Source of the DNA: an uncultured Gammaproteobacteria bacterium
GTDB taxonomy: Bacteria; Pseudomonadota; Gammaproteobacteria; Competibacterales; JAHEDQ01
Assembly (NCBI GenBank): GCA_963783675.1
Contig: CAWAOU010000016.1
Coordinates: 98,478-162,477, forward strand
DNA length: 64,000 nt
Direction of reading: 5' to 3'
A program made the position numbers and the translations under genes. Each line of letters begins with the position of its first letter. Position 1 is the first letter of the stretch. The notes under the pieces were generated by a model, which saw only the letters and a program-made list of their open reading frames with translations, had not been told where the DNA came from and made no database searches. Below, piece after piece: positions 1,092-58,631 of this stretch.

Positions 1092-1128
1092 ACGGCATCC
1101 TCGACTGGCTGACTTTGGACTGTCGGAG

Positions 1129-1214
1129 TCCAACGGCTCGGAGCGAACCGCAGCGGCGAGGGATTCAGTCCGTCACCGTCGCACGGCGCGGGATCCGAGT
1201 TCGAATCCGTTGGA
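1129..1214. other. long imperfect stem-loop (rod-like hairpin) upstream of the heparinase-like start codon
   Basis: The outer stem TCCAACGG (1129-1136) pairs perfectly with CCGTTGGA (1207-1214). The next stem pairs CTCGG with CCGAG. An inner hairpin at about 1150-1182 is capped by ATTCAGT. No ORF covers the region convincingly. Confidence 0.5.
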
Positions 1215-1404
1215 GACACCAAATATTGTTCCTGAACTGCGCATTGATGAAGCGCAATCCGCCGCTGCCGGAGTGAGACGGAGGCGTTGCGGCCGGTACG
1301 AAATATCCGCCGAGCCGGTGCGGGCGCACAACCCGATCAACCCAACGCATATCTACCGCCGCAGCAAACCCAAAGAAAGCGTGAGCCGTGTCCCGAATAG
1401 CCTG

Positions 1405-1482
1405 TATGCAGATTGGGACCGAAATTCACCGCTTCATCGTTGGAAATCCAGGCAATAAAACAACTGATACCCGCGATCCGCC
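1405..1482 (+). repeat. copy A of an ~80-nt intergenic repeat family
   Basis: Hand alignment to 50204-50278 gives about 52 identities over 70 aligned positions. Shared core: TGCAnnTTGGGACyGAAAnnCACnnCTTCATCrTTGnArATnnnGGCAATArAnCAACnnnTACCCGCrA. Lies 20-100 nt past the stop of the 1503..4817 gene. Confidence 0.6.
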
Positions 1483-1502
1483 CAGAGGTGGCCGCAGGAC
1501 CG

Positions 1503-7839: not shown

Positions 7840-8876
7840 CGATCCGCGGTGGGCACGGGCACCGCCTCCAACAGCTGGTCGATGATGTCATCGACGCTCA
7901 CCCGTTCTGACTCCGCATGAAAATTGCGCAACAGACGGTGACGGAGCACCGGGCGAACCAGGGCGCGAACATCCTCAAACCCCACATGGGCGCGGCCGCG
8001 TAGCAATGCCCGCGCCTTGCCCCCCAGTACCAGAAACTGGGCGGCGCGCACGCTGGCCCCATAGGACAGCCAGCGATTGGCAAAGTCGGTGGCCTGTTCG
8101 GTGCCGGGTCGGGTGGCGCGCACCAGCGCCAGGGCATGACGGCTGACCTCGTCAGCGATCGGCACACGACGAACCAGCCGCTGATACGCCAGCAGGGCCG
8201 AGGCGGTGATGGCCGGCGTCAGGGTGGGCTTGGCGTTGCTGGTGGTGGCCTGAACCACTGCGAGTTCATCGTCTTCAGGCAGGTAGTCCAGAAGGATCTC
8301 GAAGGTGAAACGGTCGAGCTGGGCCTCGGGCAACGGATAAGTCCCTTCCAACTCGATGGGGTTCTGGGTGGCAAACACAAAAAACGGGCTGGGCAACGGG
8401 TAGGTCTTGCCCTGAACCGTGACCCGCCGTTCCTGCATGGCCTCCAGCAGCGCGGCCTGGGTCTTCGGCGGTGTGCGGTTGATCTCATCTGCCAAGACCA
8501 TGTTGGCAAACACCGGCCCGTTGACGAACACAAGCTCGCGCCGTCCGGTATCGGGATCCTGCTGAACCAGGTCGGTGCCGGTGATGTCCGAGGGCATCAG
8601 GTCCGGGGTGAACTGGATGCGGGAAAAATCCAGATCCAAAGCCTCGGCGACGGTCTGTACCAGCAGCGTCTTGGCCAGACCCGGCACCCCAACCAGCAGG
8701 CTGTTGCCCCCCACCAGCAGGGTCGTCATCACCAGATCCACCACCTCGTCCTGGCCGACGATGCGCTTGCCGATTTCCGCCAGTATCCGTCGATGATCCT
8801 GCTGCAGCGCCTCGGCCTGCCCGGCATCATCGCTGGGTATCGCTTCGGGGCGATTCGGCTGGGGTTCAGAACTCAC
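7836..8876 (-). CDS. MoxR-family AAA+ ATPase
   Basis: 346-aa ORF with Walker A GVPGLAKT and Walker B VLADEINRTPPKTQAALLEAMQE. Length and C-terminal lid region are typical of MoxR/RavA-like ATPases. Confidence 0.95.
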   Translation of the reverse strand: MSSEPQPNRPEAIPSDDAGQAEALQQDHRRILAEIGKRIVGQDEVVDLVMTTLLVGGNSLLVGVPGLAKTLLVQTVAEALDLDFSRIQFTPDLMPSDITGTDLVQQDPDTGRRELVFVNGPVFANMVLADEINRTPPKTQAALLEAMQERRVTVQGKTYPLPSPFFVFATQNPIELEGTYPLPEAQLDRFTFEILLDYLPEDDELAVVQATTSNAKPTLTPAITASALLAYQRLVRRVPIADEVSRHALALVRATRPGTEQATDFANRWLSYGASVRAAQFLVLGGKARALLRGRAHVGFEDVRALVRPVLRHRLLRNFHAESERVSVDDIIDQLLEAVPVPTADR

Positions 8877-11479: not shown

Positions 11480-12501
11480 GGCAGACGCCCCTGACGATGG
11501 GCTCGGCGATTGAGCGCCAGTTCCACCAACAGCGCCTCCAGACGTGTCTCGTAGTCGGATTGCGCCAGGCCGAGTTTGCGCCGTTTCAAACCTTCGATTC
11601 GGTCAACCAACCGCCGCGCCTCCACCTGCAGGGCCAGGCTGGCCCGACCCTGGGCCGTGGACGGATCCCCCGTGTCCGCCGCGGCCAGGTAAAAGCGCCC
11701 GGCCAACGAACCGTCTGCCGCAGCGGCACCGGGTTCCCGGCTTCCGATGCCGTCACCGTTGTCGTCGAGCTGTGCATGTTCGCTGAGCAGGCGATGGTCC
11801 AACCGGTAGGCGCGATCCACTTCCCGTCGGGCATAGTCGAACGCCTCCAGCAGTGAGACCCGCTCATCCTTGTCCGCGTCGGCACCGGGCTCGGCGAAGG
11901 CATCGACGAAATGCGCCGCAAACAGGGTGTGCTGATTCTCTGCGCCGCCGGAGGTGGCGGCGATGACCACTCGATTGGGGGCCGAAAGGTATTGAACGAA
12001 TGCACCGCTACTGGGTGTGGTGTTGACCACCGCCAATGTCCGGTCGGACAGGCGCCCCAGCGCGTCGGCGAGTTCCTTGGCCGAGAGATCCGGCCCAGGC
12101 ACATTGAACAGCACCCGGTCGCCCCGCGCGGTGCCATGCCCGATCAGGACAATCATCACCCGGTCACCTGGCCTTGAGCGGGCCGCAATACGCTCAACGG
12201 CGGCCAGAACTGTGGCTTTATCCGATACCCCGGCGATGACCCCCGGCGCCCGATCCATGCGCTCGCCCAGGTAGACCACGTGCTCCCGAGCAAACCCCAG
12301 GTGCTCGGTGGCCACCTGTGTCAGGGTGGCGGCCCACCGGTGAAACAGATCGCCGTAGTAGTCCTCACCGCCTACGCCGGTGATCACCAGCAGGTGGGTT
12401 TGCGGCCGTTCCTGAGCGACCACTGCTGGGCCCGCGCAGATCAGGACCAGGCTGAGCAAACCGGCAGCCATTCCGACGGTTGAGCGACAATAACCGCTCA
12501 T
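11476..12501 (-). CDS. legumain (peptidase C13)-fold protein lacking the catalytic Cys
   Basis: The ORF track starts it at 12582. I prefer the ATG at 12501..12499, which forms an ATGA overlap with the upstream stop and gives a signal-like N-terminus (MSGYCRSTVGMAAGLLSLVLICAGPAVVAQ). VMIVLIGHGTARGDRVLF...DLSAKEL...LAVVNTTPSSGAF...VVIAATSGGAENQ aligns by eye to the legumain His-Gly and Cys blocks. There is no Cys after the signal peptide. Confidence 0.6.
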   Translation of the reverse strand: MSGYCRSTVGMAAGLLSLVLICAGPAVVAQERPQTHLLVITGVGGEDYYGDLFHRWAATLTQVATEHLGFAREHVVYLGERMDRAPGVIAGVSDKATVLAAVERIAARSRPGDRVMIVLIGHGTARGDRVLFNVPGPDLSAKELADALGRLSDRTLAVVNTTPSSGAFVQYLSAPNRVVIAATSGGAENQHTLFAAHFVDAFAEPGADADKDERVSLLEAFDYARREVDRAYRLDHRLLSEHAQLDDNGDGIGSREPGAAAADGSLAGRFYLAAADTGDPSTAQGRASLALQVEARRLVDRIEGLKRRKLGLAQSDYETRLEALLVELALNRRAHRQGRLP

Positions 12502-32017: not shown

Positions 32018-35000
32018 TCAACCCGCGTCCGATGGCACCGTGTTGCGGCGTCCCTTGCGATCCGCCAGCTTCTGCAGAAACACATAGAACGCGGGTACGA
32101 ACAGCAGCGCCAGGCAGGTTGATGCAAGCATGCCGCTGAGTACGGTGATGCCGATGGATTTGCGTGAATTGGCTCCCGCGCCACTGGCCAGCACCAGGGG
32201 CAACACCCCGAGAATAAATGCAAACGAGGTCATCAGAATCGGCCGAAACCGAACCTGGGCGGCCTCAACCGCCGCGGACACGGCGTCGGCGCCCTGGTTG
32301 TAGCGCTCTCTTGCCACCTCCACAATCAGGATCGCATTCTTGGCCGACAGTGCAATCAACAGCACCAGCCCGATTTGCACGTAGAGGTTGTTGGCTATGC
32401 CCACCGCCAGCAAGACGCTCACCGTGCCCAAAAGCGCCAGCGGCACGGCGAAAATAACCGCGCCGGGTATCAGCCAGCTTTCATACTGGCCGGCTAGAAC
32501 GAAGTACACCAGCAGCACGGACAGGGCGAAAATAAAGTACTCCGTATTGCCCAGCAGCTTTTCCTGGTAGGACATGCCGGTCCACTGGTAGTCCATACCG
32601 CCGGCCAGACTTGCATCGGCGATCTGCTCCATCGCGGTCATGGCCTGGCCCGTGCTGAAGCCCCGGTCCGGGACGCCAACCACGGTGGCCGACGGGTAAA
32701 GGTTGTAGAGCGAGATCAGATCCGGCCCGACCCCGGGTGTCATTTCCACCAGCGAACCGATGGGCACCATATCACCCGTGTTGCTGCGCACGTAGAACTG
32801 CATGATGTCATCGGGGGTCAAGCGAAACGGCTGGTCCGCCTGGGCAAACACCATGAAGTTGTGCCCGAAACGGGTGAACTGGTTGACATAGCTGGAGCCG
32901 AGGTAGCTTTGCAGGGTGCTGAAGGCATCCCCCACCGGTACCGCAAAGGTCTCGGCTTTGCTTCGATCCAGCACCACGTCCACATTGGGTGCGTCGGCCC
33001 GAAACGGGCTGAAGGCAAAGCGAATACCCTCATGCTTGGCCCCGGCCTCCCCGATCTTCGCGGCCACGTCCTGGAGCTTTCCATAGTCGTAGTTGTTGTC
33101 TATCAGGTTGACCTGCATCTGGAACCCGCTGGCCAGACCCACACCCTGTATCGGCGGCGGCACCAGCACCAGGGATTTCGCCTCCTCTACGCCCTGGACC
33201 GTATCGGACAGTGCCTGATAGAGGGGCAGCAGGCCCTCTGCCTTACCCCGCTGATCCCAGGGCTCGAGAATCACGTAGATCACGCCGGAACTGGACTGCG
33301 GGGCGCTGTTCTGCAGCAGCGAGGTCCCGGCAATGGTCACCGCATGCAGCACGCCCGGCACCTTGGACACCCGCTCCGACAGCGCTGTCAGCGCCTGGCC
33401 GGTTCGGTCCAGGGTCGCACCGCTGGGCAGTTGAACCGAGATCACCATGTAGCCCTGATCCTCCACCGGTATGAAACCGGTGGGCACCCGAGTGAATCCC
33501 CAGCCGGCGACCACCACCAGCAGCAATGCCATCAGCACGGCAATGCCGCTGTGCCCGGCCAACCGGCGGACCAACCCCACATAGCCCCGTTCCATGCGGG
33601 CGTACAGCCAGTTAAAACCCCGGAACACAATAAATTTGCCCGCCGCCGGGTTGACCGGGCGCAACCACTGGCCGCATTGGGTCGGCTTCAGAGTCAGGGC
33701 GTTAATGGCGCTGATCAAGGCGGTGGCGGCAATGACCAGGGCGAACTGTCGATACATCTGGCCGGTTACCCCCGGTAGGAAGGCGGCCGGAACAAAGACG
33801 GACATCAAGACCAGGGTGATCCCCACGATGGGGCCGGTGAGCTCTGACATGGCGTCGATGGCGGCCTGCCGGGGTGACTTGCCCCGCTCGATGTGTTGGG
33901 TCGAGCCCTCCACCACCACGATGGCGTCGTCCACCACGATGCCGATGGACAGCACGATGGCGAACAGGGTCAGCGTGTTGATGCTGAAATCCAGCATATA
34001 CATGGCGGCGAAGGCGCCGATGATGGTCACCGGGACTGTGGTCACCGGCACCAGGATGGCGCGGAAACTTTGCAGGAACAGTACAATGACCACCAGCACC
34101 AAAACCCCGGCCTGGAACAAGGTGACATAGACTTCATCAATGGACTGGGACACGAAATCGGTGGTGTCCAGGGGAATCCCGTAGGTCAATCCTTCCGGGA
34201 ACGCTTTCGCCAGGCGGTCCATCCGGGCCTTGACGGCCTCGGCCGTATCCAGCGCATTGGCTTCGGGCAGCAGGAAAATCGCCAGACCACCTGCCGGCTT
34301 TCCATCCAGATTGAAGGACTGGCTGTAGCTCCGGGCCCCGAGTTCCACCCGCGCCACATCGCGCACCCGGGTGATCTGCCCGCCCCTGCCTTGTTGCGCC
34401 TTGACGATAATGGACTCGAACTGGTCCGCCTGATCCAGCGGACCAGACACGTTCACATCCATCTGAAAATCCTGGCTGCTGGGTGCCGGCGGCATACCCA
34501 GTTGGCCCGCTCCAACTTTTACGTTTTCGCCCTGAATGGCCTGAATCACGTCGGACGGCGTCAGGGAACGCTGCTGCATCTTCTCCGGATCGAGCCAGAT
34601 GCGCATGCTGTACTCACCGATGCCAAACACCACCACGTCGCCCACTCCGGGCAAACGCGCCAGCTCATCCCGTAACGAGATGGTGGCGTAGTTGCTCAGA
34701 AACAGGGCGTCGTACTCACTGTTGCTGGATTGCAGGGTGACGATCTGCAGGATCGAGGTGGACTTCTTGCTGGTGACCACCCCTTGCTGCTGCACTGCCG
34801 AGGGCAGCTGCGCGGTGGCGGCGGCCACCCGGTTCTGCACCAGTACCTGGGCGATGTCGGGATCGGTGCCGATATCAAAGGTCACGGTCAGGGTGTACTG
34901 ACCGTTGCTGGCGCTGGTGGATTCCATGTAGAGCATGTTCTGAACCCCGTCCACCTGCTGCTCGATGGGCAGGGCCACGGTTTCCACCAGGGTCTGGGCG

Positions 35001-35161
35001 CTGGCACCGGGAAACCGGGCATTGACCTGCACGGTGACCGGCGTGATCGGAGGATACTGGGCCACCGGCAATTGAAATATCGCCACGCCACCCAACAGCA
35101 ACATGACACAGGCAATGACGTTGGCCAGCACCGGCCGTTCGATAAAGAACTTGGCCATCAT
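32018..35161 (-). CDS. RND efflux transporter, inner-membrane pump (HAE1/AcrB-like)
   Basis: 1047-aa ORF. N-terminus MMAKFFIERPVLANVIACVMLLLGG. The TM4 motif is [14 protein letters not shown]. Twelve-TM-type hydrophobicity with two large loops. Confidence 0.95.
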   Translation of the reverse strand: MMAKFFIERPVLANVIACVMLLLGGVAIFQLPVAQYPPITPVTVQVNARFPGASAQTLVETVALPIEQQVDGVQNMLYMESTSASNGQYTLTVTFDIGTDPDIAQVLVQNRVAAATAQLPSAVQQQGVVTSKKSTSILQIVTLQSSNSEYDALFLSNYATISLRDELARLPGVGDVVVFGIGEYSMRIWLDPEKMQQRSLTPSDVIQAIQGENVKVGAGQLGMPPAPSSQDFQMDVNVSGPLDQADQFESIIVKAQQGRGGQITRVRDVARVELGARSYSQSFNLDGKPAGGLAIFLLPEANALDTAEAVKARMDRLAKAFPEGLTYGIPLDTTDFVSQSIDEVYVTLFQAGVLVLVVIVLFLQSFRAILVPVTTVPVTIIGAFAAMYMLDFSINTLTLFAIVLSIGIVVDDAIVVVEGSTQHIERGKSPRQAAIDAMSELTGPIVGITLVLMSVFVPAAFLPGVTGQMYRQFALVIAATALISAINALTLKPTQCGQWLRPVNPAAGKFIVFRGFNWLYARMERGYVGLVRRLAGHSGIAVLMALLLVVVAGWGFTRVPTGFIPVEDQGYMVISVQLPSGATLDRTGQALTALSERVSKVPGVLHAVTIAGTSLLQNSAPQSSSGVIYVILEPWDQRGKAEGLLPLYQALSDTVQGVEEAKSLVLVPPPIQGVGLASGFQMQVNLIDNNYDYGKLQDVAAKIGEAGAKHEGIRFAFSPFRADAPNVDVVLDRSKAETFAVPVGDAFSTLQSYLGSSYVNQFTRFGHNFMVFAQADQPFRLTPDDIMQFYVRSNTGDMVPIGSLVEMTPGVGPDLISLYNLYPSATVVGVPDRGFSTGQAMTAMEQIADASLAGGMDYQWTGMSYQEKLLGNTEYFIFALSVLLVYFVLAGQYESWLIPGAVIFAVPLALLGTVSVLLAVGIANNLYVQIGLVLLIALSAKNAILIVEVARERYNQGADAVSAAVEAAQVRFRPILMTSFAFILGVLPLVLASGAGANSRKSIGITVLSGMLASTCLALLFVPAFYVFLQKLADRKGRRNTVPSDAG

Positions 35162-35180
35162 GACGGCTGCGGCCCCCGCC

Positions 35181-36272
35181 TCACGGACTCGCCTCCAGCA
35201 CCTTCACTTTCTGTCCCGGCCTGGCGTAGGCCAAACCCTTGACGATGATCCGGTCGGTGGCATCCAAGCCACCCGTCACCACACGCGACTCACCCTTTTG
35301 CTCGCCCACCTGGATCCGTTTCTGACGGACCACGTCCTGATCATCCACCACCAGCACGAAGGCGCCGGCCTGATCTCGCTCCACCGCCCGGTTTGGCACC
35401 GCAAGATGCTGGATCGGACTGCCAAATCGGATTCTGACCCGGGCGAACAGGCCGGGCACAAACAGGCCGTCCGGGTTGTCGAGCACGGCGCGCAATTGAA
35501 TGGTGCCACTGCCCTGATCCACGCCAGGGGCAACGTAGTCCAGGGTGCCCTGGTAGGGGTAATCGCTGTCGTTACCAATGGCCACCAGCACCGGAAGCGT
35601 GCCAACCTGCTTCATCGGATCATCGTCCTGGGCCATGAGACGGCGCCGCACGCCGAGAGCGTCCGGTGCATTGATGCTGAAATCTAGATAAATCGGATCG
35701 ACCTGCTGCAACGCCACCAGCTGGGTCACCCCGGTGTTGGGACCCACCAGGTTTCCGGCATCCACCAGACGCGCCCCGAGTTGCCCGGCAAAGGGCGCGC
35801 TGATTTCCGTATAGCCCAGATTGATGGCCGCGAGCTGCGTATTGGCATCGGCCTCGTCACGTTTTGCCCGCCAGCTTTCAACCCGCGTCTGCGAGGTCGC
35901 GTCCTGCGAGATCAAGCGCAGCTGCCGGGCGTACTCGCTTTGGGCCTGGCTGAGTTGTGCCTGATACAGCTTCAACTGCTGTTCATAGGTGTTGCGCTGG
36001 ATGGAGAACAAAGGCGCGCCCTTGGCCACCCGACTTCCGTCCCGGAAATGCACCGCTTCCAGTACCCCGTCCACCCGGGCGACGATGTTTGCCGTGGCCG
36101 ACGCCTCGAAGGTTCCGGTGGCGTCCAAATGCTCACTGACGGCGGCGGGCTTGGGCCGCTGGACCGTGACCTCGTTGGGCGCCGCGGCTTGCTGCGCCAA
36201 TGCAGCGGGCGGGCACCATGGGATCGCGGACATCGCGGCCAGCGTCAGGGCAAAAGAGCGCATCCTGGTCAT
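35181..36272 (-). CDS. RND efflux periplasmic adaptor (membrane fusion protein)
   Basis: 363-aa ORF with a signal peptide (MRSFALTLAAMSAIPWCPPAALAQ). It has a coiled-coil hairpin region (YEQQLKLYQAQLSQAQSEYARQLRL) and a beta-barrel C-terminus. Its start has a 4-nt overlap with the OMF stop. Confidence 0.9.
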   Translation of the reverse strand: MTRMRSFALTLAAMSAIPWCPPAALAQQAAAPNEVTVQRPKPAAVSEHLDATGTFEASATANIVARVDGVLEAVHFRDGSRVAKGAPLFSIQRNTYEQQLKLYQAQLSQAQSEYARQLRLISQDATSQTRVESWRAKRDEADANTQLAAINLGYTEISAPFAGQLGARLVDAGNLVGPNTGVTQLVALQQVDPIYLDFSINAPDALGVRRRLMAQDDDPMKQVGTLPVLVAIGNDSDYPYQGTLDYVAPGVDQGSGTIQLRAVLDNPDGLFVPGLFARVRIRFGSPIQHLAVPNRAVERDQAGAFVLVVDDQDVVRQKRIQVGEQKGESRVVTGGLDATDRIIVKGLAYARPGQKVKVLEASP

Positions 36273-37837
36273 GGTGTGGTCACTTCGGTTACGCCTCCCG
36301 TGGGCGAAGGGGCTGGTTGTTCGCTGTCCGGCGCTTCAGCGCCGGCGGCAGGCAGCACCTCGCCCCAATTGGTGCGTTGACGCATATCGTCCGCCACCGC
36401 CTCGGACACGATGCTGCGTCCCTGGCGGATCTGCCAGCCGCCACCCAGAGCGCGGTAAACCGAAACCAAGGCGAGTAGAACCTGTCCTCGGCTTTGTGCC
36501 AGGGCGTTTTCCACCTGGAGCTGCGAGTCGAACGCGTTGAGCACCGCGGTGAAACCGGTCTCGCCGTCCTTGTACTGGATCATGGCCAGCCCGGTCGTAC
36601 GTCTCGCCGAGACCGCGGCCTCGGTGAGCGCGGCCACAATGCGCTTGCCGTAAACAAAAGCGGCCAGCGCATTCTCCACATCCTGCTGGGCCGCCAGCAC
36701 CGTGTTTTGATAACTGAGCACCGCTTCCTGGAACAGCGCGTCCTGTACCCGCACCTGGTTGGTCAGCCGTCCGTAGTTGAAGATCGGGAATACGAAACCC
36801 GCCCCAGCCTGAGCGAATCGGCTGTTCCAGTTAAAAATATCAGACACGGACGATCGGCCCAGGTTGGTGGAGCCATAGCCAAAGAAACCGGACAGGGAAA
36901 ACGAGGGATAGAGCTGGGACTCGGCCACACCAATCACCGCCGACTGCGCCGCCGCCGTCTGCAGAGACTCACGCACGTCCGGTCGTCGGCGCAATAGGTC
37001 CAGGGGTATCCCCACGTCCACCTGGGGTGGCGCCCTGGGTACGTCGATGGTGTCTGCCAGCATGGGATCGGCATAACCCGGCGCCTCCCCCAGCAGCAGG
37101 CTCAGCGTGTTGGCGGTCTGCCGCCACTGCTGCTCGAGACCCGGAATCTGAGCCTGGGTTTCCGCCAGCCGGGTTGTGGCCTGGGACACGTCCAGCGCAC
37201 TGGTTTCACCGTTTTCGAAACGGACCCGGGCCAAACGCAAACCCTCGCGCTGGACCTCGGCATTGGCGGCGTTCACCGCCAACTGAGCGTCCAGCGTTCG
37301 GATTGCAACGAAACCGTTGGCGACGCTGGCGACCAGCGTGACCAGGGCATCGTCATAGGCCGCGATGGTGCTGAACAGGGCGGCCTGGTCCGCCTCGATG
37401 CCGCGCCGATACTTGCCCCAGAAATCGATCTCCCAGGTCGCGCCAAAACCAATCCGGTCGGTGACGACATCCGTCCCGGAGTCGAGCAAGCCTGTATTCG
37501 CGTACTGGTAGTTGATCGAGCCGGTCAAGGCCTGCTGCTGGGGAAACTGAGCGCCTATGGCGATGTTGAGCTGGGCCTGGGCCTGGAGAATACGCACCCC
37601 GGCCACCTGCAGATTGGGATTGTTGCGATAGGCCGTGTCCACCAGCATGTCCAGTGTAGGACTGTCGAGCGCTTGCCACCACGCCCGGTCGGCTGCGCTC
37701 TCACTGGCGCGCAAATCGGGTGATTGCTCACGCCATTGCGGGTTCACAGTCACATCGGGGTCCACAAAATCGGGACCCACTGTGCAGGCGCTCAGGGCCA
37801 AGGTCGCACACGCCAGACCGCACGCCGCATACCTCAT
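36269..37837 (-). CDS. RND efflux outer-membrane factor lipoprotein (NodT family)
   Basis: I prefer the ATG at 37837, giving MRYAACGLACATLALSAC|TVGPDF with a lipobox. The ORF-track extension to 37969 is R/P/G-rich and unlikely to be real. The protein has the OMF two-repeat architecture, and its start overlaps the SGNH stop (ATGA). Confidence 0.9.
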   Translation of the reverse strand: MRYAACGLACATLALSACTVGPDFVDPDVTVNPQWREQSPDLRASESAADRAWWQALDSPTLDMLVDTAYRNNPNLQVAGVRILQAQAQLNIAIGAQFPQQQALTGSINYQYANTGLLDSGTDVVTDRIGFGATWEIDFWGKYRRGIEADQAALFSTIAAYDDALVTLVASVANGFVAIRTLDAQLAVNAANAEVQREGLRLARVRFENGETSALDVSQATTRLAETQAQIPGLEQQWRQTANTLSLLLGEAPGYADPMLADTIDVPRAPPQVDVGIPLDLLRRRPDVRESLQTAAAQSAVIGVAESQLYPSFSLSGFFGYGSTNLGRSSVSDIFNWNSRFAQAGAGFVFPIFNYGRLTNQVRVQDALFQEAVLSYQNTVLAAQQDVENALAAFVYGKRIVAALTEAAVSARRTTGLAMIQYKDGETGFTAVLNAFDSQLQVENALAQSRGQVLLALVSVYRALGGGWQIRQGRSIVSEAVADDMRQRTNWGEVLPAAGAEAPDSEQPAPSPTGGVTEVTTP

Positions 37838-48614: not shown

Positions 48615-49820
48615 CTAGCCCTCCGTCGGCGCCTTGGTCTCGGACGCCTCCGGAGAAGGCGGATCGGGATCGGGATTGCCTTGCCGAGGATCCTGGCTCA
48701 TGCGCGGATCGACCACGATGCCTGGACGCACCTTCTGGATGCCCTCAACGATTACCTTCTCATCCGGTTCCAGACCCTCGGTAACAACCAACTGCCCGGC
48801 ATCGGCCCGCCCGGTCTTGATCCTGCGTTGCTCCACCTTATTACCGGGGCCAACGACCATCACGAACGTGCCGGCCTGATCCTCCTGAACCGCGGATTGT
48901 GGAATGGTCAGGGCTTCGGCCTCCTCCTCACTGCTCAGAAGGGCCCGCACATAGAGCCCAGGAACCAGGAGCTTTTCCGGATTATCGAACTTGGCGCGCA
49001 CGATGACCGTACCGGTATTGCGATCCACAACGTTATCGATGAAATCGATGCGCCCGACCTGATCGAACAGGCTGCCGTCGGGCAACCGCAGTCTCAAGGC
49101 AACCGACTCCAGATCGTCAACACCCTTGTTCTGTTCCAGCAACCGCCGCTTGGCAGTGATGATGTCCCCTTCGCTGACGCTGAAATTGACGTAAATAGGG
49201 TCCAGTTCAACCAGGCGCGCCAATTCCCCGGCCTGAGAATCCACCAGATCCCCCACACTGAAAATGGCCCGCCCGATACGGCCGCTGATGGGTGCGGTGA
49301 TCAGGGTATGCCCCAGGTCGATTTCCGCCTTCTCAAGTTCCGCCTGGACGGACATGAGTTTTGCCTCGGCAGTCAGCTTGCTCTCTTCGGCCTCTTCCAG
49401 ACGCTGGGTACTGCCGGCGTTTTCCTTCACCAGGTTGGTCTGACGCTGCACATCCTGATTGGCCCGCAAGAGAGATGCTTGGACCTCTGCTACGGCCCCC
49501 TCCGCAGCCGACACCTGCGCCTGGTAGATGGCCGGATCGATCAGAAACAGGGGCATCCCCACGTCGACGTCCTGACCCTCACTGAAACGACGTTCCTTCA
49601 AATATCCCGCCACCTGGGCCCGCAGGGACACGTCGTTGACCGCCACTGTCCTGCCTATGTACTCGACCGACTCGTCCACCGTCTCCACGGTCGCGGCGGC
49701 AATCAGCACACCGGGTGGAGGCCCCTCGACCGCAGGGGCCTGACTCTCGCTACAGGCCGCTAGCGCAAGCGACAATGCGCCTGCAGCAAAAGGAACGAAT
49801 AGACGGCGCACTGGATTCAT
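48615..49820 (-). CDS. RND efflux periplasmic adaptor (membrane fusion protein), second copy
   Basis: I prefer the ATG at 49820, giving a lipoprotein-type MNPVRRLFVPFAAGALSLALAAC. The ORF-track extension to 50081 is R/C-rich and unlikely. It has a coiled-coil plus beta-barrel layout. Confidence 0.9.
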   Translation of the reverse strand: MNPVRRLFVPFAAGALSLALAACSESQAPAVEGPPPGVLIAAATVETVDESVEYIGRTVAVNDVSLRAQVAGYLKERRFSEGQDVDVGMPLFLIDPAIYQAQVSAAEGAVAEVQASLLRANQDVQRQTNLVKENAGSTQRLEEAEESKLTAEAKLMSVQAELEKAEIDLGHTLITAPISGRIGRAIFSVGDLVDSQAGELARLVELDPIYVNFSVSEGDIITAKRRLLEQNKGVDDLESVALRLRLPDGSLFDQVGRIDFIDNVVDRNTGTVIVRAKFDNPEKLLVPGLYVRALLSSEEEAEALTIPQSAVQEDQAGTFVMVVGPGNKVEQRRIKTGRADAGQLVVTEGLEPDEKVIVEGIQKVRPGIVVDPRMSQDPRQGNPDPDPPSPEASETKAPTEG

Positions 49821-50190
49821 ATCGGGCCTTCGAAAACTGTGATCGGCGCATCGACCGGGATGGGCACACCCGGGCAAAACAATCTGGATTTGGATTAAGA
49901 CGCACAGTCTACAGAATGTGTGACCGACTCGCATGGAAGCTCGCACGCAATCGGTCATTCGAAACCGGCGAAGCCTAAACGCCCCGCCCCGCTCATGTGC
50001 AGCGGCCAATGGCGCGAGCATCCCGCGCCCGAGCCAACAGCGCCGCATGCGGACAGGCCTGGGAGACGTCTTGCGTCTCAACCGCGCTTAATACACCTGA
50101 TTGAGAGCCAGAGCCGCAGACATGTTCGTCGTCAGAACACTCGAAGACCAACCTTGAAGCACAAGGCGCGCGGGCTAAGGCGTCTCTGAC

Positions 50191-50344: not shown

Positions 50345-51082
50345 TCATGCTGCCGGAGCGTCTTCTTGCCCGGCGGTTGGTTCCACCAAGTCGAGGTAGG
50401 CATACCAGGTCGCATGGCCCAGCAGTGGAAAGATCACGATCATGCCTATGAGCAACGTAGCGAATCCCACGCCGACGATTAGCACGCACAGGGCACCCCA
50501 CACGAGCATCACCGGCAGATCCGCACCCAGCGTCACGCGGAGCCTGGTGTGCATTGCGGTGCCCGCGTCGACGTCCCGGTCGATGATCATCGGCACCGAG
50601 ACAACCGAGAGGGCGGAGACAACGCAGGCCAGTATTCCTCCGACCACCAGATAGGAAACCATTTGGGCCGCGGTCAAATTGACCAGAACATCGCCCCACA
50701 TGGTCTCGAAGTAGTTTGGGCCAACGCTGCCAAAGGTCATGAACAGCATCAGGCCGGACAGGCCAAACCAGGCGAAGCTGAACAGCAACAGCGTGCCGGC
50801 GTAGCGCAACAAGCTCTCGCGATGCTCCGAGAGAGACTGAAGTGAGGTATCGAAATTCGAAACCCCGCCACTGGTCCGCAATCGTGACAGCTCACACAAT
50901 CCTGTGGCCATGATCGGGCCAACTAACAGGAATCCGGAAATCGCGGCGGCATGCGCGTAAGGAAGCTGTCCGATGGTGAGAATCAGGGCACCCAGAATGC
51001 TCACCAAAACGCCGCAGCCAAGGCTGGCACCCTTGTGATGGAGCAGGTCATCCCATCCCCTGCTCAAGGAAGGTCTGATCAA
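50345..51082 (-). CDS. DUF2189-like integral membrane protein (5' end possibly disrupted)
   Basis: 245-aa ORF beginning at a TTG. LSRGWDDLLHHKGASLGCGVLVSILGALILTIG plus four or five further hydrophobic segments fit my recollection of DUF2189. No ATG or GTG start is available in frame. Confidence 0.65.
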   Translation of the reverse strand: MIRPSLSRGWDDLLHHKGASLGCGVLVSILGALILTIGQLPYAHAAAISGFLLVGPIMATGLCELSRLRTSGGVSNFDTSLQSLSEHRESLLRYAGTLLLFSFAWFGLSGLMLFMTFGSVGPNYFETMWGDVLVNLTAAQMVSYLVVGGILACVVSALSVVSVPMIIDRDVDAGTAMHTRLRVTLGADLPVMLVWGALCVLIVGVGFATLLIGMIVIFPLLGHATWYAYLDLVEPTAGQEDAPAA

Positions 51083-51160
51083 TTGATACGAATCGCGTTT
51101 CGGTCCACAAGGGCGCAGATGCGAGGCCCCCGGCGCGATCGCAGCAATTGACCTTCCTTA
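51066..51160. repeat. ~95-bp imperfect palindrome overlapping the DUF2189 start
   Basis: The left arm AAGGAAGGTCTGATCAATTGATACGAATCGCG (51066-51097) pairs with the right arm CGCGATCGCAGCAATTGACCTTCCTTA (51134-51160). The paired blocks are 9 + 6 + ~9 bp with small bulges, around a 36-nt centre. Confidence 0.7.
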
Positions 51161-52111
51161 ACCAGGTGAAGGGTCGAGTGAGGGGAACACGCCGAATGTC
51201 CGGCGTCCGCAGAAAATGGCCACTCGGATCGCTTAACATACTCATCCTGGTTCGTCCGTGCGGAGATTCTCCGCATCTTAAACATCGTCCCCCGACAAGA
51301 GGTATGTCAAAAAAGACGAGTCGCCGAAGCGCGAGCGCGGAGCCGACATCCGAGTCGAAGTCCAATGTGTCAACTCTTCGGGCGTCAAGATCGACTACAA
51401 GGTTCCACGATCTTTCGAATTCCTGACGGACTCCCAAATGAGCGCAGGCCAGTCCTGCGCCCACCCGCCTAGCGCCTGGGCGCTCCTCGCCTTGCTGAGA
51501 TGCAACGCACTTGCGGGAAGAGACACCAGCCTGCATCGCTTACCGATTTATCGTTTGATGTAGATCGCTGCCGTGGTATTGAGGTGAAATCCTCGATGCC
51601 AAGCTGAATGAGCCGGTTAACCCAAGTATCGGGCGCCCGACCGGCGATGATTGCGGCCACACAAGGCAATCTATGAGGCCCCGTCTATAATAAGCAGACG
51701 GGCTCTACCATCGGATGCTCCGCGGTCACGGCGATTCGGGTATCGCATTCGGAGGCAATACAGATCGATCTTCGACATCCCGCGGCGGCAGTAGACCCGC
51801 TGGGAGGGTTCGTTAGAGCAGCGTGCCGCTTGACGTGAAATGCATCCGGAACAAGCTCCTTAGTCGCCCAGTGCGCTGGAAAACGATCGCTGCCGACATC
51901 ATTGCGGCAAACAAAGAACGCTAAACTCAGTAACGAGGACATGGTGACGCTGACATCAGGCCATCCGGAACCGGCCAGCAAACCCTCACGCAGGCCGGAG
52001 TCACTATTCCAGCGGCGCTGAACCACGTCTAAGCGATTGCAGCCGCTGGCGCGCCGGTAGTGCTCTATTGCGCGGCTTCATCAACGATATTCAATCGGAG
52101 CACCGAAAACT

Positions 52112-53902
52112 ATGCGAATTCTGCTTATTGCTTCTGCATACAACGGGTTAACCCAGCGCGCACATGTCGAACTGGACACGTTGGGACATGAGGTTTCCAT
52201 CACGCTGGCGCTGAGTGAAGCGGAAATCAGGCAGGCACTCGCCTTCTTCGAGCCTGATCTCATCATCTGCCCATTCCTTCGAGAAAGGGTACCGGACGAT
52301 GTATGGCAGCAACATGTTTGTATCATCATCCACCCTGGCATCAAGGGCGATCGGGGTCCGTCCTCACTCGATTGGGCAGTCATGGAGAACGAAGCGGAAT
52401 GGGGCGTGACCGCTTTGCAGGCCGCAGAAGAAATGGATGCCGGCGATATTTGGGCGACATCGAATTTTCCGATGAGACCGGCAACCAAAGCCAGTCTTTA
52501 CCGGCGCGAAGTAACGCAAACCGCGATCAAAGCGATGTTGGAAGCCGTGAACCATTTCTCAACCGGAACATACCGACCGGAACCTCTCAATTACAGCAAC
52601 ACCGATGTTCGTGGAACACTGCGCCCATCGATGAAACAAAGCGAACGGGCAATTGACTGGAACATCGATAGAACAGAGGACATCGTCAGAAAAATCAATG
52701 CCGCAGACAGCAATCCCGGATTACTGGACAGGATCAATGGAGAACCTTTCTATCTGTACGGCGTGCATAGAGAGGGAATACTGCAAGGCTCTGTTCCTGG
52801 CGAAATAATCGCCCAGCGACATGGTGCGATCTGCCGAACCACCATCGACGGTGCAGTATGGATCACGCATTTGAAGCGAACAAAAGCTCAACGAGTGCCT
52901 TTTTACAAACGATGGACAGTCGCCCAGAGACTGGATTTCAAACTCCCGGCGGCGACGCTCCTCGGAGCAACCTTAAACAACATCGACGAATCAAACATTG
53001 AACCGCTGTTCATGGGGGAAGAGGAAACCTACAAAGAAATTTGGTACCGGGAAAGAAATGAAATTGGTTACTTGCACTTCGACTTCCACAATGGCGCCAT
53101 GAGCACACAACAATGTCATCGTTTGCGCGAAGCCTATCGCCTCGCCCGTGAACGCCCCACCCGGGTCATCGTTTTGATGGGAGGGCAGGACTTTTGGTCC
53201 AATGGAATCCACCTCAACGTTATCGAAGCCGCAAAGGACCCAGCCGCCGAGTCCTGGCGAAATATCAATGCTATTGATGACGTAGTGCGAGAGATCATCA
53301 CAACAACGACGCATTTGACGCTTTCCGCGGTGTGGGGCGGAGCAGGTGCTGGTGGCGCAATAATGCCGTTGGCCGCTGACCGCGTTTGCGCGCGTGCAGG
53401 CTGCATTATGAATCCTCATTATAAAACCATGGGTTTGTACGGTTCCGAATACTGGACTTATCTGTTACCCAAGCGAATCGGAAAAGCCAGGGCTGTCGAA
53501 ATGATGCAAACACCCCTACCCCTCGGCATGAAGAAAGCCGTCGAAATCGGTATGATCGACAATATATTGTCTGACAACTTCGACGAATTCGGCGATCAAA
53601 TAGCGCAGATCGCCGAATCAATGGCCGACGATGCGAATTTCGGAAATGCTCTTCAGCACAAGATCAAACGTCGCGCCAAGGACGAAGAAATCCGTCCACT
53701 GGCCGCGTATCGCGCAGCTGAACTCAAGCAAATGAAAATGAATTTCTCCGGCCAATTCTACGGCGGCGATCAGAATTATCATCAGGCCCGTTACAATTTC
53801 GTTCACAAAATTCGGCCCAAGCAAACTGCCGAATACCTGGCTAGGCACCGGCGGATTGATAGTCGAATGTTTGAAGAGTTAACGCAACCGCTCAACTATT
53901 AG
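52112..53902 (+). CDS. HypX/HoxX-like two-domain protein (N-terminal formyltransferase fold + C-terminal crotonase/enoyl-CoA-hydratase fold)
   Basis: 596-aa ORF. MRILLIASAYNGLTQRAHVELDTLGHEV...IIIHPGIKGDRGPSSLDWAVMENEAEWGVTALQAAEEMDAGDIWAT closely parallels HypX N-termini as I recall them. The C-terminal strings are RVIVLMGGQDFWSNGIHLNVIEAA and AVWGGAGAGGAIMPLAADRV. Confidence 0.9.
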   Translation: MRILLIASAYNGLTQRAHVELDTLGHEVSITLALSEAEIRQALAFFEPDLIICPFLRERVPDDVWQQHVCIIIHPGIKGDRGPSSLDWAVMENEAEWGVTALQAAEEMDAGDIWATSNFPMRPATKASLYRREVTQTAIKAMLEAVNHFSTGTYRPEPLNYSNTDVRGTLRPSMKQSERAIDWNIDRTEDIVRKINAADSNPGLLDRINGEPFYLYGVHREGILQGSVPGEIIAQRHGAICRTTIDGAVWITHLKRTKAQRVPFYKRWTVAQRLDFKLPAATLLGATLNNIDESNIEPLFMGEEETYKEIWYRERNEIGYLHFDFHNGAMSTQQCHRLREAYRLARERPTRVIVLMGGQDFWSNGIHLNVIEAAKDPAAESWRNINAIDDVVREIITTTTHLTLSAVWGGAGAGGAIMPLAADRVCARAGCIMNPHYKTMGLYGSEYWTYLLPKRIGKARAVEMMQTPLPLGMKKAVEIGMIDNILSDNFDEFGDQIAQIAESMADDANFGNALQHKIKRRAKDEEIRPLAAYRAAELKQMKMNFSGQFYGGDQNYHQARYNFVHKIRPKQTAEYLARHRRIDSRMFEELTQPLNY

Positions 53903-53941
53903 AATCAGTTGCTTTGATAGCATGCCGAGAGGGAATTACCG

Positions 53942-54781
53942 ATGTTCTTTAGAGACTGGGTGGTTCTGTTGGTAGACGATGAGCCTGATGTGCTCACCAT
54001 GTCTAAGTTGTTGATGAGAAAATTCGAGGTCTATGGCCTTCCGATCAAGATCTACACCGCGAAAAGTAAAGCCGAGGCAGTAGAGCTACTCGCGAACGAT
54101 CTTGAAGTGGCAAGTTCGCTGGCGGTTGCGTTTATTGACGTGGTCATGGAGACGGATTCAGCGGGCTTGGAACTATGTGAGTATATTCGCGATGACATGG
54201 GGAACAGACTCAGTCAGCTTTTCATACGAACCGGTCAGCCGGGAATAGCGACCGAGATGGATGTAATCGATCGATACGATATAAATGGCTATTTCACCAA
54301 GGTCGAAACAAGCCAAACCAAACTCTATTCCGTCGTAAAAAGCAGTGTGCGCCAGTATCTGTTATTCGGCATGTCGCTGGCAACCATTGGAGTTCTAAAC
54401 GATCTGATTGCTGCTTCGAAGTCCCGAGACGCAATCCTGGATGCCATCCATCACTTGTGTGGGTACAATATAGAGCTGGAGGATACTCCGCGATGGCTCA
54501 TTGTCGATGATGAAGTTTTATTCGAGGAAGAAATCGACGCAGCGAGGGGCGTCGAAACCTGCGCAGAAATGCTGTCACTCGAAGGTATCGACCTGAATCC
54601 CGCGGGTGACAAATACGTTAAGGGAAATGATGGTTTTCAATTAATACACATAACTAAGAAACCGACCCAAGCAGAGACAACATATCTCTTCCAAACGAGA
54701 TTCTCTCCGCCAGAACACGTCGTCAGCTTGATGCATAGCGTGTTCTCAGGTCTGGCAACGGCGTGGCGACAATCCTCTTGA
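53942..54781 (+). CDS. response-regulator receiver (REC) protein with an unassigned ~150-aa C-terminal domain
   Basis: 279-aa ORF with GAGGGA upstream. REC landmarks are VLLVDDEPDV, the phospho-acceptor context VAFIDVVMETDSAG, and INGYFTK. I recognise no DNA-binding or enzymatic motif in the C-terminal half. Confidence 0.8.
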   Translation: MFFRDWVVLLVDDEPDVLTMSKLLMRKFEVYGLPIKIYTAKSKAEAVELLANDLEVASSLAVAFIDVVMETDSAGLELCEYIRDDMGNRLSQLFIRTGQPGIATEMDVIDRYDINGYFTKVETSQTKLYSVVKSSVRQYLLFGMSLATIGVLNDLIAASKSRDAILDAIHHLCGYNIELEDTPRWLIVDDEVLFEEEIDAARGVETCAEMLSLEGIDLNPAGDKYVKGNDGFQLIHITKKPTQAETTYLFQTRFSPPEHVVSLMHSVFSGLATAWRQSS

Positions 54782-54946
54782 TATTGAATCAGGGCGGATC
54801 GTTTTGTGTGCCAACAACAACGTTGCTCGGGAGGCTCTGATCTATTCCTGAATCTGCGCCTTAAATCACACATTTCACCCTTCAATTCGCTTTGTCCAGA
54901 CTAATTCAGGGATTCCCCAGGATGAGCATATCGAGCAAATGATCTA

Positions 54947-56143
54947 ATGATAAAGGAAAGTGTCAAACACATTCCCTACTTTAGCGAGCTCAGTGACGCC
55001 GAATTGCAGGAGATCGTCGACACCGGGCATGAGAAAACCTTTGCACCTGATCAGTTGGTTTTTGAGCAGGGAGACCGCGGGGACTATATGTATGTCATCG
55101 TTGAAGGTCAGGTTCGGGTTTTCTACCAAACGGAGGGGGAGGAAATCACTTTGTCGACGCTCGCTAGGGGCGCGTTCTTCGGTGAAATGGCACTGATCGA
55201 TGATGGTCCACGGTCCGCCAGTGTCCGAACGCTTGTCTCGTGCCATTTCTTTTTATTGGGACGAGCGGAGTTTCTCGAACTACTCGCCCGTTCGACCCCT
55301 ATGCTTTCCGATGTCATGCGAGGACTGAGTGGCAGGATTCGGACGTTGGGGCGTGATTTTGTCGTCACATCACTGCAGAAACGTCACGTTGAGGACCAGG
55401 CCGAAATCGATCGGCACCGTGCCATATCGCAGATGGTGGCGGGGGTTGCCCACGAGATCAACACACCCATCGGGATCGCCAGCCAAGGGGCAAAGTTTAT
55501 CAGCGAAACACTGAGCCCGGCATTGATTGCGAAGTTGGGCGAAGACGGTGACGCTTTGGAAGCGGTGACGGATGTTGTGGATGCGGCACGGCTCATCGAT
55601 GCCAACATCCAGCGTGCCGACAGATTGATCGGATCGTTCAAGAATATCTCTGTCCGGCAGATCTCTGCCGCACTGGAGACGATTGATCTTCGCGAATTGC
55701 TGGATGAAATCATTGCGCTCTATCCTGTCCAAAGCAAGAGTGCCAATTTGACGATCCATATCACCGACAATCTGGGTGATGATCGCGTTTGGACGGGCTT
55801 TCCCGGCTACCTGACGCAGGTTCTGTTGAACCTGATCCAAAATGCTCAAATCCACGCCTATCCAGCGGATTCAAACGAGACCGTGGAGATTGTGTTGGCG
55901 AAAAACGCGGAATGCTACATAGTCGAGGTGAAGGATTTTGGCTGCGGTATCAATGAGGACGATCTTAAAGAGGTGTTCACGGCATTCTATACGACGAAGC
56001 GCGGCCAAGGGGGTACCGGGCTGGGGATGGCTATCGTCCATAGTCTGGTAACGGACGCTCTGCGAGGTACGATCGAAACGAGTTCTACAATCGGACAAGG
56101 TACGAGCGTATCCATTCGTTTCCCGAAACAACTGAAGGTCTGA
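54947..56143 (+). CDS. sensor histidine kinase with an N-terminal cyclic-nucleotide-binding domain
   Basis: 398-aa ORF. The cNMP-binding string is FFGEMALIDDGPRSASVRT, the H-box is VAGVAHEINTPIGIA, and the G2 box is KRGQGGTGLGMAIVHSLV. There are no TM segments, so it is predicted to be cytoplasmic. Confidence 0.9.
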   Translation: MIKESVKHIPYFSELSDAELQEIVDTGHEKTFAPDQLVFEQGDRGDYMYVIVEGQVRVFYQTEGEEITLSTLARGAFFGEMALIDDGPRSASVRTLVSCHFFLLGRAEFLELLARSTPMLSDVMRGLSGRIRTLGRDFVVTSLQKRHVEDQAEIDRHRAISQMVAGVAHEINTPIGIASQGAKFISETLSPALIAKLGEDGDALEAVTDVVDAARLIDANIQRADRLIGSFKNISVRQISAALETIDLRELLDEIIALYPVQSKSANLTIHITDNLGDDRVWTGFPGYLTQVLLNLIQNAQIHAYPADSNETVEIVLAKNAECYIVEVKDFGCGINEDDLKEVFTAFYTTKRGQGGTGLGMAIVHSLVTDALRGTIETSSTIGQGTSVSIRFPKQLKV

Positions 56144-56532
56144 CCCAAGGGTTAGAACAATAAAACGCTGCGCGGCGGACCTGCGCTTCAAAGCACCGCG
56201 GCCCCCAACTTCTAGGCCTGACCCGACCATTCCTACGTCTACAGGCACAGCTTAATCGGGCCGTGTAAAGGAGTGATGGTGAGTTTGTAACCGGCGGGTA
56301 AAGTTTCTGTGAAGCTGCGTAATCAAGAACCTTGCGGCTCGAGCGTCACCGGAGTAACCCTGGTCACGGCGCCCGTGTATCCGAGTAGCGTTTGTCGGTT
56401 TGCCGGAAGTTAAGGTGGCAACCCAGAGCCACTACCCGGTGCCCGGCAACGGGCTTGCGGCTGGCCCTTGGAAAGCGGTAGCGGGGTATTTGAGCGCCTG
56501 GAGCTGGGTTTCCGAGTTGGAAGGATAACGAC

Positions 56533-57927
<1,395 letters not shown>

Positions 57928-58070
57928 GCGGCGCACCGATTGCCCAACCCAGTGCTGTTTTTAACGCCATGGCGCGGCGCCAATGACCCCATCGCCCTAC
58001 GTCCGAAATGCCAGGATGGCCGCGGTCCGGAACGGGCCTTAGGCGACAGGATTGCTCGTTTTGAGAACCG

Positions 58071-58631
58071 TCAGTCGCCACCTTGGCGCAGCAGGACGAC
58101 GGATCGGCTCAGTGCCACTCTGGGTCGGCCCTTCTCTGAGAATCCTGCACGCCGGGCGGCCTCTACGCTGGCTTCGAACGCGTCCCTTTCGACATGGATC
58201 TTGGGCTCGACGATATGCAAGAGTGCGCCCGCGTTGAGCACCTCTCGCACCTGCTTGAACAAGTTCTCAGGGTTCGGAACTTCGTGAACCATCCAGAAAG
58301 CAACGGCAAATCCGAACCGCGGATCTTTGCTGAGCCCCAAATCGTTTGCAGTGGATTTGACGAATTCGGCGCGTTCCAAGAGCCCGACGCGCTCAAGGCG
58401 TCGCCGGGTCATCGCGAGCATATGTGCTTGCAGATCAACCGCGACCACCAAGCCATCAGGGCCGACCAGCCGCGCCAGGCCCTCGCTATTGAAGCCCGCC
58501 CCGCATCCGATGTCGAGTACATGCATTCCGGGGCGAACCCATTCCCCGAAGATTTGTTCGGGATCGTAGAGTAACCGGCGGATCGGATTGTCGAAACTGC
58601 GCACGAACCACCAGGGACAAACATGGGCCAT
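58071..58631 (-). CDS. class I SAM-dependent methyltransferase (small)
   Basis: I prefer the ATG at 58631, with GAGGAG upstream, giving MAHVCPWWFVRSFDNPIRR.... Motif I is VLDIGCGAGFNS, followed by VVAVDLQAHML. The ORF-track extension to 58880 is R-rich and unlikely. Confidence 0.8.
   Translation of the reverse strand: MAHVCPWWFVRSFDNPIRRLLYDPEQIFGEWVRPGMHVLDIGCGAGFNSEGLARLVGPDGLVVAVDLQAHMLAMTRRRLERVGLLERAEFVKSTANDLGLSKDPRFGFAVAFWMVHEVPNPENLFKQVREVLNAGALLHIVEPKIHVERDAFEASVEAARRAGFSEKGRPRVALSRSVVLLRQGGD

Follow-up and report, generated by a model that had tools for sequence, protein, structure and literature searches.

In the 64-kb stretch of gammaproteobacterial DNA analyzed here (contig CAWAOU010000016.1, hereafter the window), the gene at 53942-54781 on the plus strand encodes a response regulator of an uncatalogued family. 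Its architecture is very probably a receiver (REC) domain followed by a long helix and a GAF-like domain, with no output domain fused to them. Our explanation of the protein as a whole, which we hold with about as much confidence as doubt, is that it is a phosphorylatable response regulator whose GAF-like second domain is neither an enzyme nor a DNA binder, that a histidine kinase drives its binding to a partner protein, and that HypX, the carbon monoxide (CO)-forming maturase encoded next to it, is the likeliest partner in its own clade. That the regulator controls HypX directly is a more tentative proposal drawn from gene context, possible rather than probable.

The open reading frame (ORF) had been described in an earlier reading made from the letters before any database search (the sequence-only reading); it exists on the plus strand as described, and its translation is the 279-residue protein quoted there, followed by a stop codon. 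The start codon is supported by the clade-invariant residues M1, F2, F3 and W6. Residues 1-123 (53942-54310, plus strand) form the receiver, which is diverged and carries the full set D12, D13, D66, T97 and K120. The motifs pointed out in the sequence-only reading were correctly identified: LLVDDEPDV holds D12 and D13, FIDVVME holds the phospho-acceptor D66 (codon 54137-54139), and GYFTK holds K120. An alignment of 53 homologues (A1) shows no variation at any of the five residues, and each is conserved in at least 95% of 83 members of the family taken from genomic and metagenomic loci. In the AlphaFold2 model, residues 6-119 adopt the (beta-alpha)5 receiver fold with five alternating strand/helix units, and solved receivers in the PDB match the model in Foldseek at TM (template modeling) scores of 0.74-0.87 with root-mean-square deviations (rmsd) of 2.0-3.4 Å. 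Of 46 diverse family members, 44 matched the Pfam family Response_reg (PF00072) at E ≤ 1, the strongest at E 4.3e-10, and the weak NCBIfam matches to the window protein cover the receiver only. Judged from the profile scores, the receiver is a diverged subfamily, as are its relatives in REC-DUF3369 proteins (29.1 bits in a Vibrio protein, locus L018).

The remainder of the protein is absent from the domain collections that we searched. Pfam (2025 copy) gave no match in residues ~124-279 of the window protein, NCBIfam (2026) gave none to its C-terminal region, a PDB sequence search with the protein found none, and no Pfam family lay over the C-terminal half of any of the 46 diverse members. Neither the window protein nor these 46 relatives matched any Pfam or NCBIfam model of the helix-turn-helix (HTH) or winged-helix, LytTR, GGDEF, EAL, HD-GYP, CheB, PP2C or AAA+ type, which bears out the lack of HTH, GGDEF, EAL, HD-GYP, CheB and PP2C signatures noted from the letters alone; Pfam GAF, GAF_2 and GAF_3 were likewise without a match at E ≤ 1 in the same proteins. 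With the full-length protein as query, we recovered more than 4,700 homologues. The top 120 are full length and 54-99% identical, several of them from Methylomicrobium, Methyloprofundus and other Methylococcaceae; these 120 are named in their sources only as 'response regulator' or 'CheY-like chemotaxis protein'. Full-length members occur in Gammaproteobacteria, in Lysobacterales, and in Anaerolineaceae and Chloroflexia (39-42% identity). The proposal of a new or rare effector domain therefore stands in that the domain is uncatalogued in Pfam 2025 and NCBIfam 2026, and falls in that the domain is not rare and its GAF-like fold is not new.

We also searched a profile of the C-terminal region (A2) against 1.84 billion representative proteins and obtained 184 clusters (50% identity) at E ≤ 0.001. 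The genuine matches are nearly all proteins of 270-300 residues (or pieces of them) in which the domain occupies ~124-288, so by these matches the domain has essentially one architecture, a receiver and then this domain with no output domain after it. Two other architectures, P0166 (688 aa) and P0197 (442 aa), were set aside as probably chimeric or frameshifted gene calls; P0166 joins a regulator fragment to an acyl-CoA-synthetase-like protein, and P0197 joins a cyclic nucleotide monophosphate (cNMP)-kinase fragment to a regulator fragment. A likeness of the domain to NHL or 'Pizza' beta-propellers was rejected as an artefact of repeat summation, at ~4 bits per stretch and individual E values of 400-650. 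The only part that matches NHL repeats is a 35-residue hairpin, L.P.GD.YV...G..LI, at residues ~210-245 (window ~54570-54676), and both the long multi-stretch A2 matches and the PDB 'Pizza' matches stem from it.

The AlphaFold2 model built with alignment A1 has a mean pLDDT (predicted local distance difference test) score of 90.7 and a predicted TM score (pTM) of 0.85 for the full length. It divides the region after the receiver into a linker helix (residues ~124-158; 54311-54415, plus strand), which bears the family-wide motif T124, K127, L128, Y129, K133 and R137, and a globular GAF-like alpha/beta domain (residues ~159-279; 54416-54778, plus strand) made of a helix, strands with an inserted helix, four more strands and a terminal helix. 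In the full-length model a 34-residue helix runs from 125 to 158 and a second helix from 162 to 173; the globular part has a strand at 184-188, a helix at 200-211, three main strands at 224-227, 232-237 and 246-251 along with shorter ones, and the terminal helix at 258-277. When the C-terminal region was modeled alone, the secondary structure was unchanged and the pLDDT was 91.1. Because the region is conserved across thousands of homologues and its fold is predicted confidently both in the full-length protein and alone, it is a real conserved domain and not a chance or junk ORF.

In Foldseek searches against the PDB, the best match of the whole protein was a REC-GAF histidine kinase (6oaq, 6oap and 6ob8; E 5e-9 to 1e-7), with alignments of ~320-330 columns that cover both domains. 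The C-terminal domain alone had no match at E ≤ 0.001; its top match was 3p01 (E 0.026, probability 0.98, TM 0.51/0.46), and GAF domains were the commonest fold among the leading matches, with 3p01 followed by CodY, Nlh1, 3cit and 6oap (TM 0.40-0.48). We assign the domain as GAF-like with moderate confidence, on the basis of a predicted model. The sequence-only reading had named a confident profile or structure match to a known output domain as the result that would speak against it, and the Pfam, NCBIfam and Foldseek searches yielded none: we do not count the structural matches as such because they are to a sensory or relay fold and are weak for the domain alone, and a GAF domain is not an output domain.

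To describe the conservation of the C-terminal region, we compared it with the receiver at two depths. In the broad family, the mean pairwise identity is 57% for the receiver and 20.5% for the globular C-terminal domain; in the close clade, the values are 75% and 50%. Beyond the receiver, the family-wide conserved positions are the linker-helix residues listed above, S161 and the G222-D223 turn, and W275 is at least 90% conserved. Five residues, L140 and T148 of the linker helix plus W185, F194 and F250, are 100% fixed in the HypX-linked regulators and reach at most 27% elsewhere. No His or Cys is invariant in the C-terminal domain across the 83 locus-derived members, and the conserved positions of the domain include no catalytic-looking cluster. 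The domain is acidic, with an isoelectric point (pI) of 5.0, and the protein as a whole has a pI of 4.6. These features fit a module for binding or dimerization. They do not suit an enzymatic role, haem or metal sensing, or DNA binding. We rejected a haem- or metal-binding GAF domain of the DosS/DosT kind for want of an invariant His or Cys.

Most response regulators are transcription factors, and the gene lies in an apparent operon that would be open to autoregulation; the C-terminal domain might then be a cryptic DNA- or RNA-binding output that regulates hypX or other genes. Against this stand the lack of any match to HTH, winged-helix, LytTR or other nucleic-acid-binding families, the acidity of the domain, and the absence of a nucleic-acid-binding fold from its structural matches, in which the CodY match is to the GAF domain and not to the DNA-binding part. 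We consider a transcription factor very improbable and, given the missing HTH match and the acidic domain, rejected DNA binding by the domain. From the same conservation data, the domain most likely acts by binding another protein, and nothing is fused downstream of it, so its output must be exerted on a separate protein.

The closest known relatives of the receiver lie in REC-DUF3369 proteins. In about 70 genomic loci the match to the regulator is confined to residues 6-139, at 43-48% identity, and the two of these that we inspected encode a REC-DUF3369-HD-GYP protein (L018, Vibrio) and a REC-DUF3369-HisKA-HATPase-REC-Hpt protein (L066, Azospirillum). A survey of HD-GYP proteins describes DUF3369 (PF11849) as a cytoplasmic domain of GAF-like character, nearly always located after a receiver, and as a proposed or probable modulator of REC signaling to HD-GYP, GGDEF or kinase outputs; the survey reports neither a structure nor a known ligand (bioRxiv 10.1101/2021.11.05.467447). 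DUF3369 begins at the equivalent of regulator residue ~128 and spans 168 profile positions, compared with ~155 residues in our C-terminal domain. The first ~18 residues of the linker helix are common to the two groups, with KLYS..K..R in our family and KLFT..A.R in theirs. PF11849 had no match at E ≤ 1 in the window protein or the 46 diverse members, while the positive controls scored E 2e-37 (L018) and E 3e-37 (L066). For the profile comparison, DUF3369 was represented by an alignment of 55 sequences from the fetched loci. A shallow family profile gave no signal against it (probability 2.7%), and a diverse family profile (A3; effective sequence number, Neff, 5.7) gave an hhalign probability of 63% with E 6.9e-5; the confident part covers the first two helices only, and a collinear end-to-end alignment appears only at a relaxed threshold. 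Judging from these alignments, the receiver and linker helix are clearly akin to those of REC-DUF3369 proteins. Membership in DUF3369 was rejected, as PF11849 has no match and the profile signal is gone without the linker helix. By analogy, the regulator resembles a REC-DUF3369 module that lacks its output while standing outside DUF3369 itself.

This kinship raises the alternative that the protein descends from a REC-DUF3369-output protein that has lost its HD-GYP, GGDEF or kinase part, and is now a remnant in decay or with weak function. Besides the identity over residues 6-139, the position of the C-terminal domain is that of DUF3369, its length is similar, the two align collinearly at low confidence, and the globular part evolves fast, all of which fit such a descent. 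However, the globular part is not detectably DUF3369; thousands of sequences from three or more bacterial lineages agree in architecture and length; the prediction of the fold is confident; the start, the stop positions and W275 are conserved; and within the clade the C-terminal domain keeps 50% mean identity with fixed residues. The constant architecture, confident fold, conserved ends and clade-level conservation imply purifying selection on a working protein, and we regard a remnant as improbable.

We then turn from the protein to its neighbors, both of which the sequence-only reading had placed correctly: a HypX-type gene upstream (52112-53902, plus strand) and a histidine kinase gene downstream (54947-56143, plus strand). 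The upstream gene encodes a 596-aa formyl-tetrahydrofolate (formyl-THF)/CoA-dependent CO-forming maturase and ends 39 nt before the regulator gene. Its product matches Aquifex aeolicus HypX (6j0p) over the full length with E 2.6e-157 and keeps all of the proposed catalytic residues, H74, D80, D109, Y437 and E446, of which Y437 and E446 align with Tyr416 and Glu426 (PMC6802093). By this match the gene is an authentic hypX. HypX supplies the CO of the [NiFe]-hydrogenase cofactor when conditions are oxic, generating it from N10-formyl-THF by way of formyl-CoA (PMC6802093; PMC12134894). Among the 20 other ORFs of the window that we scanned with Pfam, most of the largest included, there are no hydrogenase or Hyp genes, and none is annotated within 8 kb in loci L001-L003. 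HypX at 52112-53902 is an orphan in this respect, set apart from hydrogenase genes in the scanned ORFs.

The synteny comparison covered 8 loci from genomes or assemblies and 79 from metagenomes, the latter gathered with a distant member as seed (A4); neighbors were scored by tblastn. HypX lies immediately upstream in 19 of the 19 regulators that are at least 56% identical to the window protein (18 loci plus the window), with gaps of 10-39 nt in the window, L001, L003 and L004. Two loci, L124 and L096, were left out of this count; they passed a 55% cut only through partial matches to the receiver, and L124 has 64 nt of upstream sequence. Clustering of the ORFs within 4 kb of the regulator in the 87 loci returned no recurrent neighbors other than kinases, the clade-specific HypX and tandem regulator paralogues; the leftover clusters are artefacts, antisense ORFs of the kind that GC-rich DNA produces. 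Some loci without HypX carry the REC plus GAF-like regulator as tandem paralogues, at 6969-7874 and 7914-8891 in L006 and at 625-1422 and 1308-2378 in L114.

The downstream gene begins 165 nt after the regulator gene and encodes a 398-aa histidine kinase with an N-terminal cNMP-binding domain. Its cNMP phosphate-binding cassette, FGEMALIDDGPRSAS, is intact, as are its H box (HEINTP, with H169) and its N, G1 and G2 boxes. Kinases of the same core family adjoin the regulator in many loci of the family. A cNMP-binding kinase adjoins it in the window, in L002 and in the Chloroflexi loci L005-L007, and of the 40 loci of distant members that have one flank of 1.5 kb or more, 20 have such a kinase next to the regulator, Chloroflexi included. 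Within the HypX clade, the downstream kinase is of the MHYT type in 10 of 14 loci (Pfam-confirmed for L001), and a downstream cNMP-binding kinase is confined to the sub-clade of the window, L002 and L158; in L003 a cNMP-binding kinase lies on the opposite strand. The MHYT-PAS membrane kinase that follows the regulator is encoded at 8878-10812 in L001, with equivalents in L004, L131, L137, L138, L141, L145, L149, L152 and L160. Experiments on CoxC have demonstrated that its MHYT domain senses CO, with copper (PMC11347149). Most HypX-linked loci place the gene for a CO-producing enzyme near that of a putative CO/O2 sensor kinase. Near the HypX-regulator-kinase cluster of L002 we noticed a HisKA-REC-guanylate/adenylate cyclase gene (129-1715, minus strand), a possible source of cNMP, and a split NtrC-type (sigma-54) regulator gene (10698-12135, plus strand) whose product may be HoxA-like.

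These partners bring in the main competing explanation, in which the GAF-like domain senses a small molecule such as a cyclic nucleotide or a metabolite, the regulator integrates this ligand input with its phosphorylation and modulates its own kinase or serves as a phosphate sink, and HypX is simply co-transcribed. GAF domains are classic ligand binders and stand-alone receiver-type proteins often act on kinases; in addition, the most widespread partner of the family is the cNMP-binding kinase, a cyclase gene lies near the L002 cluster, and most family members have no HypX neighbor. On the other hand, the domain shows no pocket-like conserved cluster, its globular part keeping only the G222-D223 turn and S161 at 20.5% identity, and it has no invariant His or Cys for haem or a metal. 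The explanation also leaves the 19 of 19 HypX adjacency and the clade-specific fixed residues without an account. We see it as a minority possibility, although one of some substance.

Our preferred explanation, a kinase-driven protein-binding regulator, starts from what we observed directly, namely the intact phosphorylation site, the fold class, the single architecture, the synteny, the co-inherited kinase and the strict clade-specific coupling to HypX. The adjacent cNMP-binding kinase, through H169, would phosphorylate D66. Once phosphorylated, the regulator would move its linker helix and GAF-like domain into a new position, a mechanism put forward for REC-DUF3369 proteins, and this would change the binding of a partner protein. 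HypX, encoded 39 nt upstream, is the leading candidate for that partner or target in this clade. In the window genome, aerobic synthesis of the CO ligand for [NiFe]-hydrogenase maturation would then be tied to a cyclic-nucleotide signal, and in the sister genomes with an MHYT-type kinase it would be tied to a gas signal (CO or O2). Regulation of HypX through protein contact and not through DNA binding, as the sequence-only reading had put forward, is plausible; it is consistent with the lack of a DNA-binding domain, the acidic C-terminal domain and the 19 of 19 adjacency. The most specific version makes the regulator an adaptor, switched by phosphorylation, that contacts HypX directly and gates aerobic CO synthesis, with a CO/O2-sensing MHYT kinase in most genomes and a cyclic-nucleotide-sensing kinase here; we consider it rather doubtful.

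Several results weigh against this explanation. The PF00072 match of the window protein itself (residues 8-122, 23 bits, E 9.5e-5) falls below the family cutoff of 30.2. For the domain taken alone the GAF assignment is weak (best E 0.026, rmsd ~8 Å), and roadblock/longin-type folds are also among its Foldseek matches. Removing the linker helix from both profiles left the comparison with DUF3369 at E 0.12 and a probability of 0.5%, against E 0.32 for the reversed control. The link to HypX is drawn from gene order, and the two genes might lie side by side because they are co-expressed or because the regulator acts on some other target. HypX was upstream in 0 of 47 more distant members with at least 400 nt of upstream flank. 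Since the distant members lack HypX upstream, HypX is not an ancestral or general target, and we rejected it as the general partner of the family; for the same reason, the C-terminal domain is not a dedicated HypX-binding module. Finally, a promoter and terminator scan of 51000-56700 found no signal above background, so the operon is not defined in this way.

The receiver and a GAF-like second domain are already known kinds. What is new is the domain family itself, the stand-alone architecture and the module of HypX, regulator and an MHYT or cNMP kinase. Signal relay by response regulators that have neither a DNA-binding nor an enzymatic output is known for only a few examples. The present family could be defined as a new one: it is common among environmental bacteria, its structural model is confident, and the domain databases that we searched do not list it. 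We found no literature on the HypX-regulator-kinase module with either kinase type; its strict gene order in methanotroph-type Gammaproteobacteria is a lead to signal-dependent control of the oxygen-tolerant CO-ligand route for [NiFe]-hydrogenases, a kind of control that we did not find described in the literature searched. If the regulator does gate HypX as an adaptor, a two-component system would control a metallocofactor-biosynthesis enzyme post-translationally, possibly in a feedback loop on free CO. If the link is one of co-expression only, the annotation would still be corrected from 'CheY-like chemotaxis protein' to REC plus a GAF-like domain.

Elsewhere in the window, the region downstream of the kinase (56533-61595) is patchy, with genes for a GNAT acetyltransferase (minus strand), a VIT1 iron transporter (plus strand), an S-adenosylmethionine methyltransferase (minus strand), a ParE toxin (59902-60192, minus strand) and an rve_3 integrase (60567-61595, plus strand), suggesting a stretch rich in toxin-antitoxin or mobile elements. 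Two separate resistance-nodulation-division (RND) efflux systems lie at 32018-37969 and 45444-50081, both on the minus strand: one comprises an AcrB-type pump, an outer-membrane factor and a 363-aa ORF between the pump and the next gene, and the other a 1055-aa ORF read from its sequence as a putative RND pump and an adjacent 488-aa ORF. At 1503-11479 (minus strand), an apparent operon contains a BatA/VWA 'aerotolerance-like' gene and genes for a large TPR/peptidase-MA protein and a DUF4175-like protein of 1104 aa.

Among known systems, the gene order resembles that of Cupriavidus necator, where hypX (formerly 'hoxX') lies directly upstream of a response regulator gene in the order hypX-hoxA-hoxBC-hoxJ, with a kinase gene nearby. 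HoxA regulates the transcription of hydrogenase genes as a sigma-54 activator of the NtrC type and has AAA+ and HTH domains. Receivers of the HupR/HoxA type (2jk1 and 2vuh) are among the better receiver matches to ours (TM 0.79-0.84). Unlike HoxA, however, our regulator has no AAA+ or HTH domain, and unlike the C. necator arrangement, ours has no hydrogenase genes among the ORFs scanned in the window. In sequence, the closest receivers (43-48% identity, residues 6-139) are those of REC-DUF3369-HD-GYP regulators (the RpfY family, for example V. cholerae VCA0210) and REC-DUF3369 hybrid kinases, which have the linker-helix motif in common with our family, carry a GAF-like domain of ~160-170 aa directly after the receiver and have related kinase cores encoded alongside. 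Our family differs in ending at this middle domain, with no HD-GYP, GGDEF/EAL or kinase output, in lacking a PF11849 match and in having a globular part with no significant profile similarity to theirs. In structure, the 'dual sensor' REC-GAF kinase (6oaq, 6oap and 6ob8) likewise joins REC and GAF domains through a long connecting helix (TM 0.45-0.50, E 5e-9), at a sequence identity of 8-13%; the titles of its PDB entries describe it as a light-responsive histidine kinase, whereas ours has no invariant Cys or His to hold a cofactor and ends after the GAF-like domain. RssB (3eq2) and LqsR (6sy9), both among the Foldseek matches of the full model, resemble our regulator in pairing a receiver with a second domain that does not bind DNA. 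These matches are driven by the receiver (overall rmsd 11-21 Å), and because neither protein is among the matches of the C-terminal domain alone, their second domains have different folds from ours. RssB acts by protein-protein contact.

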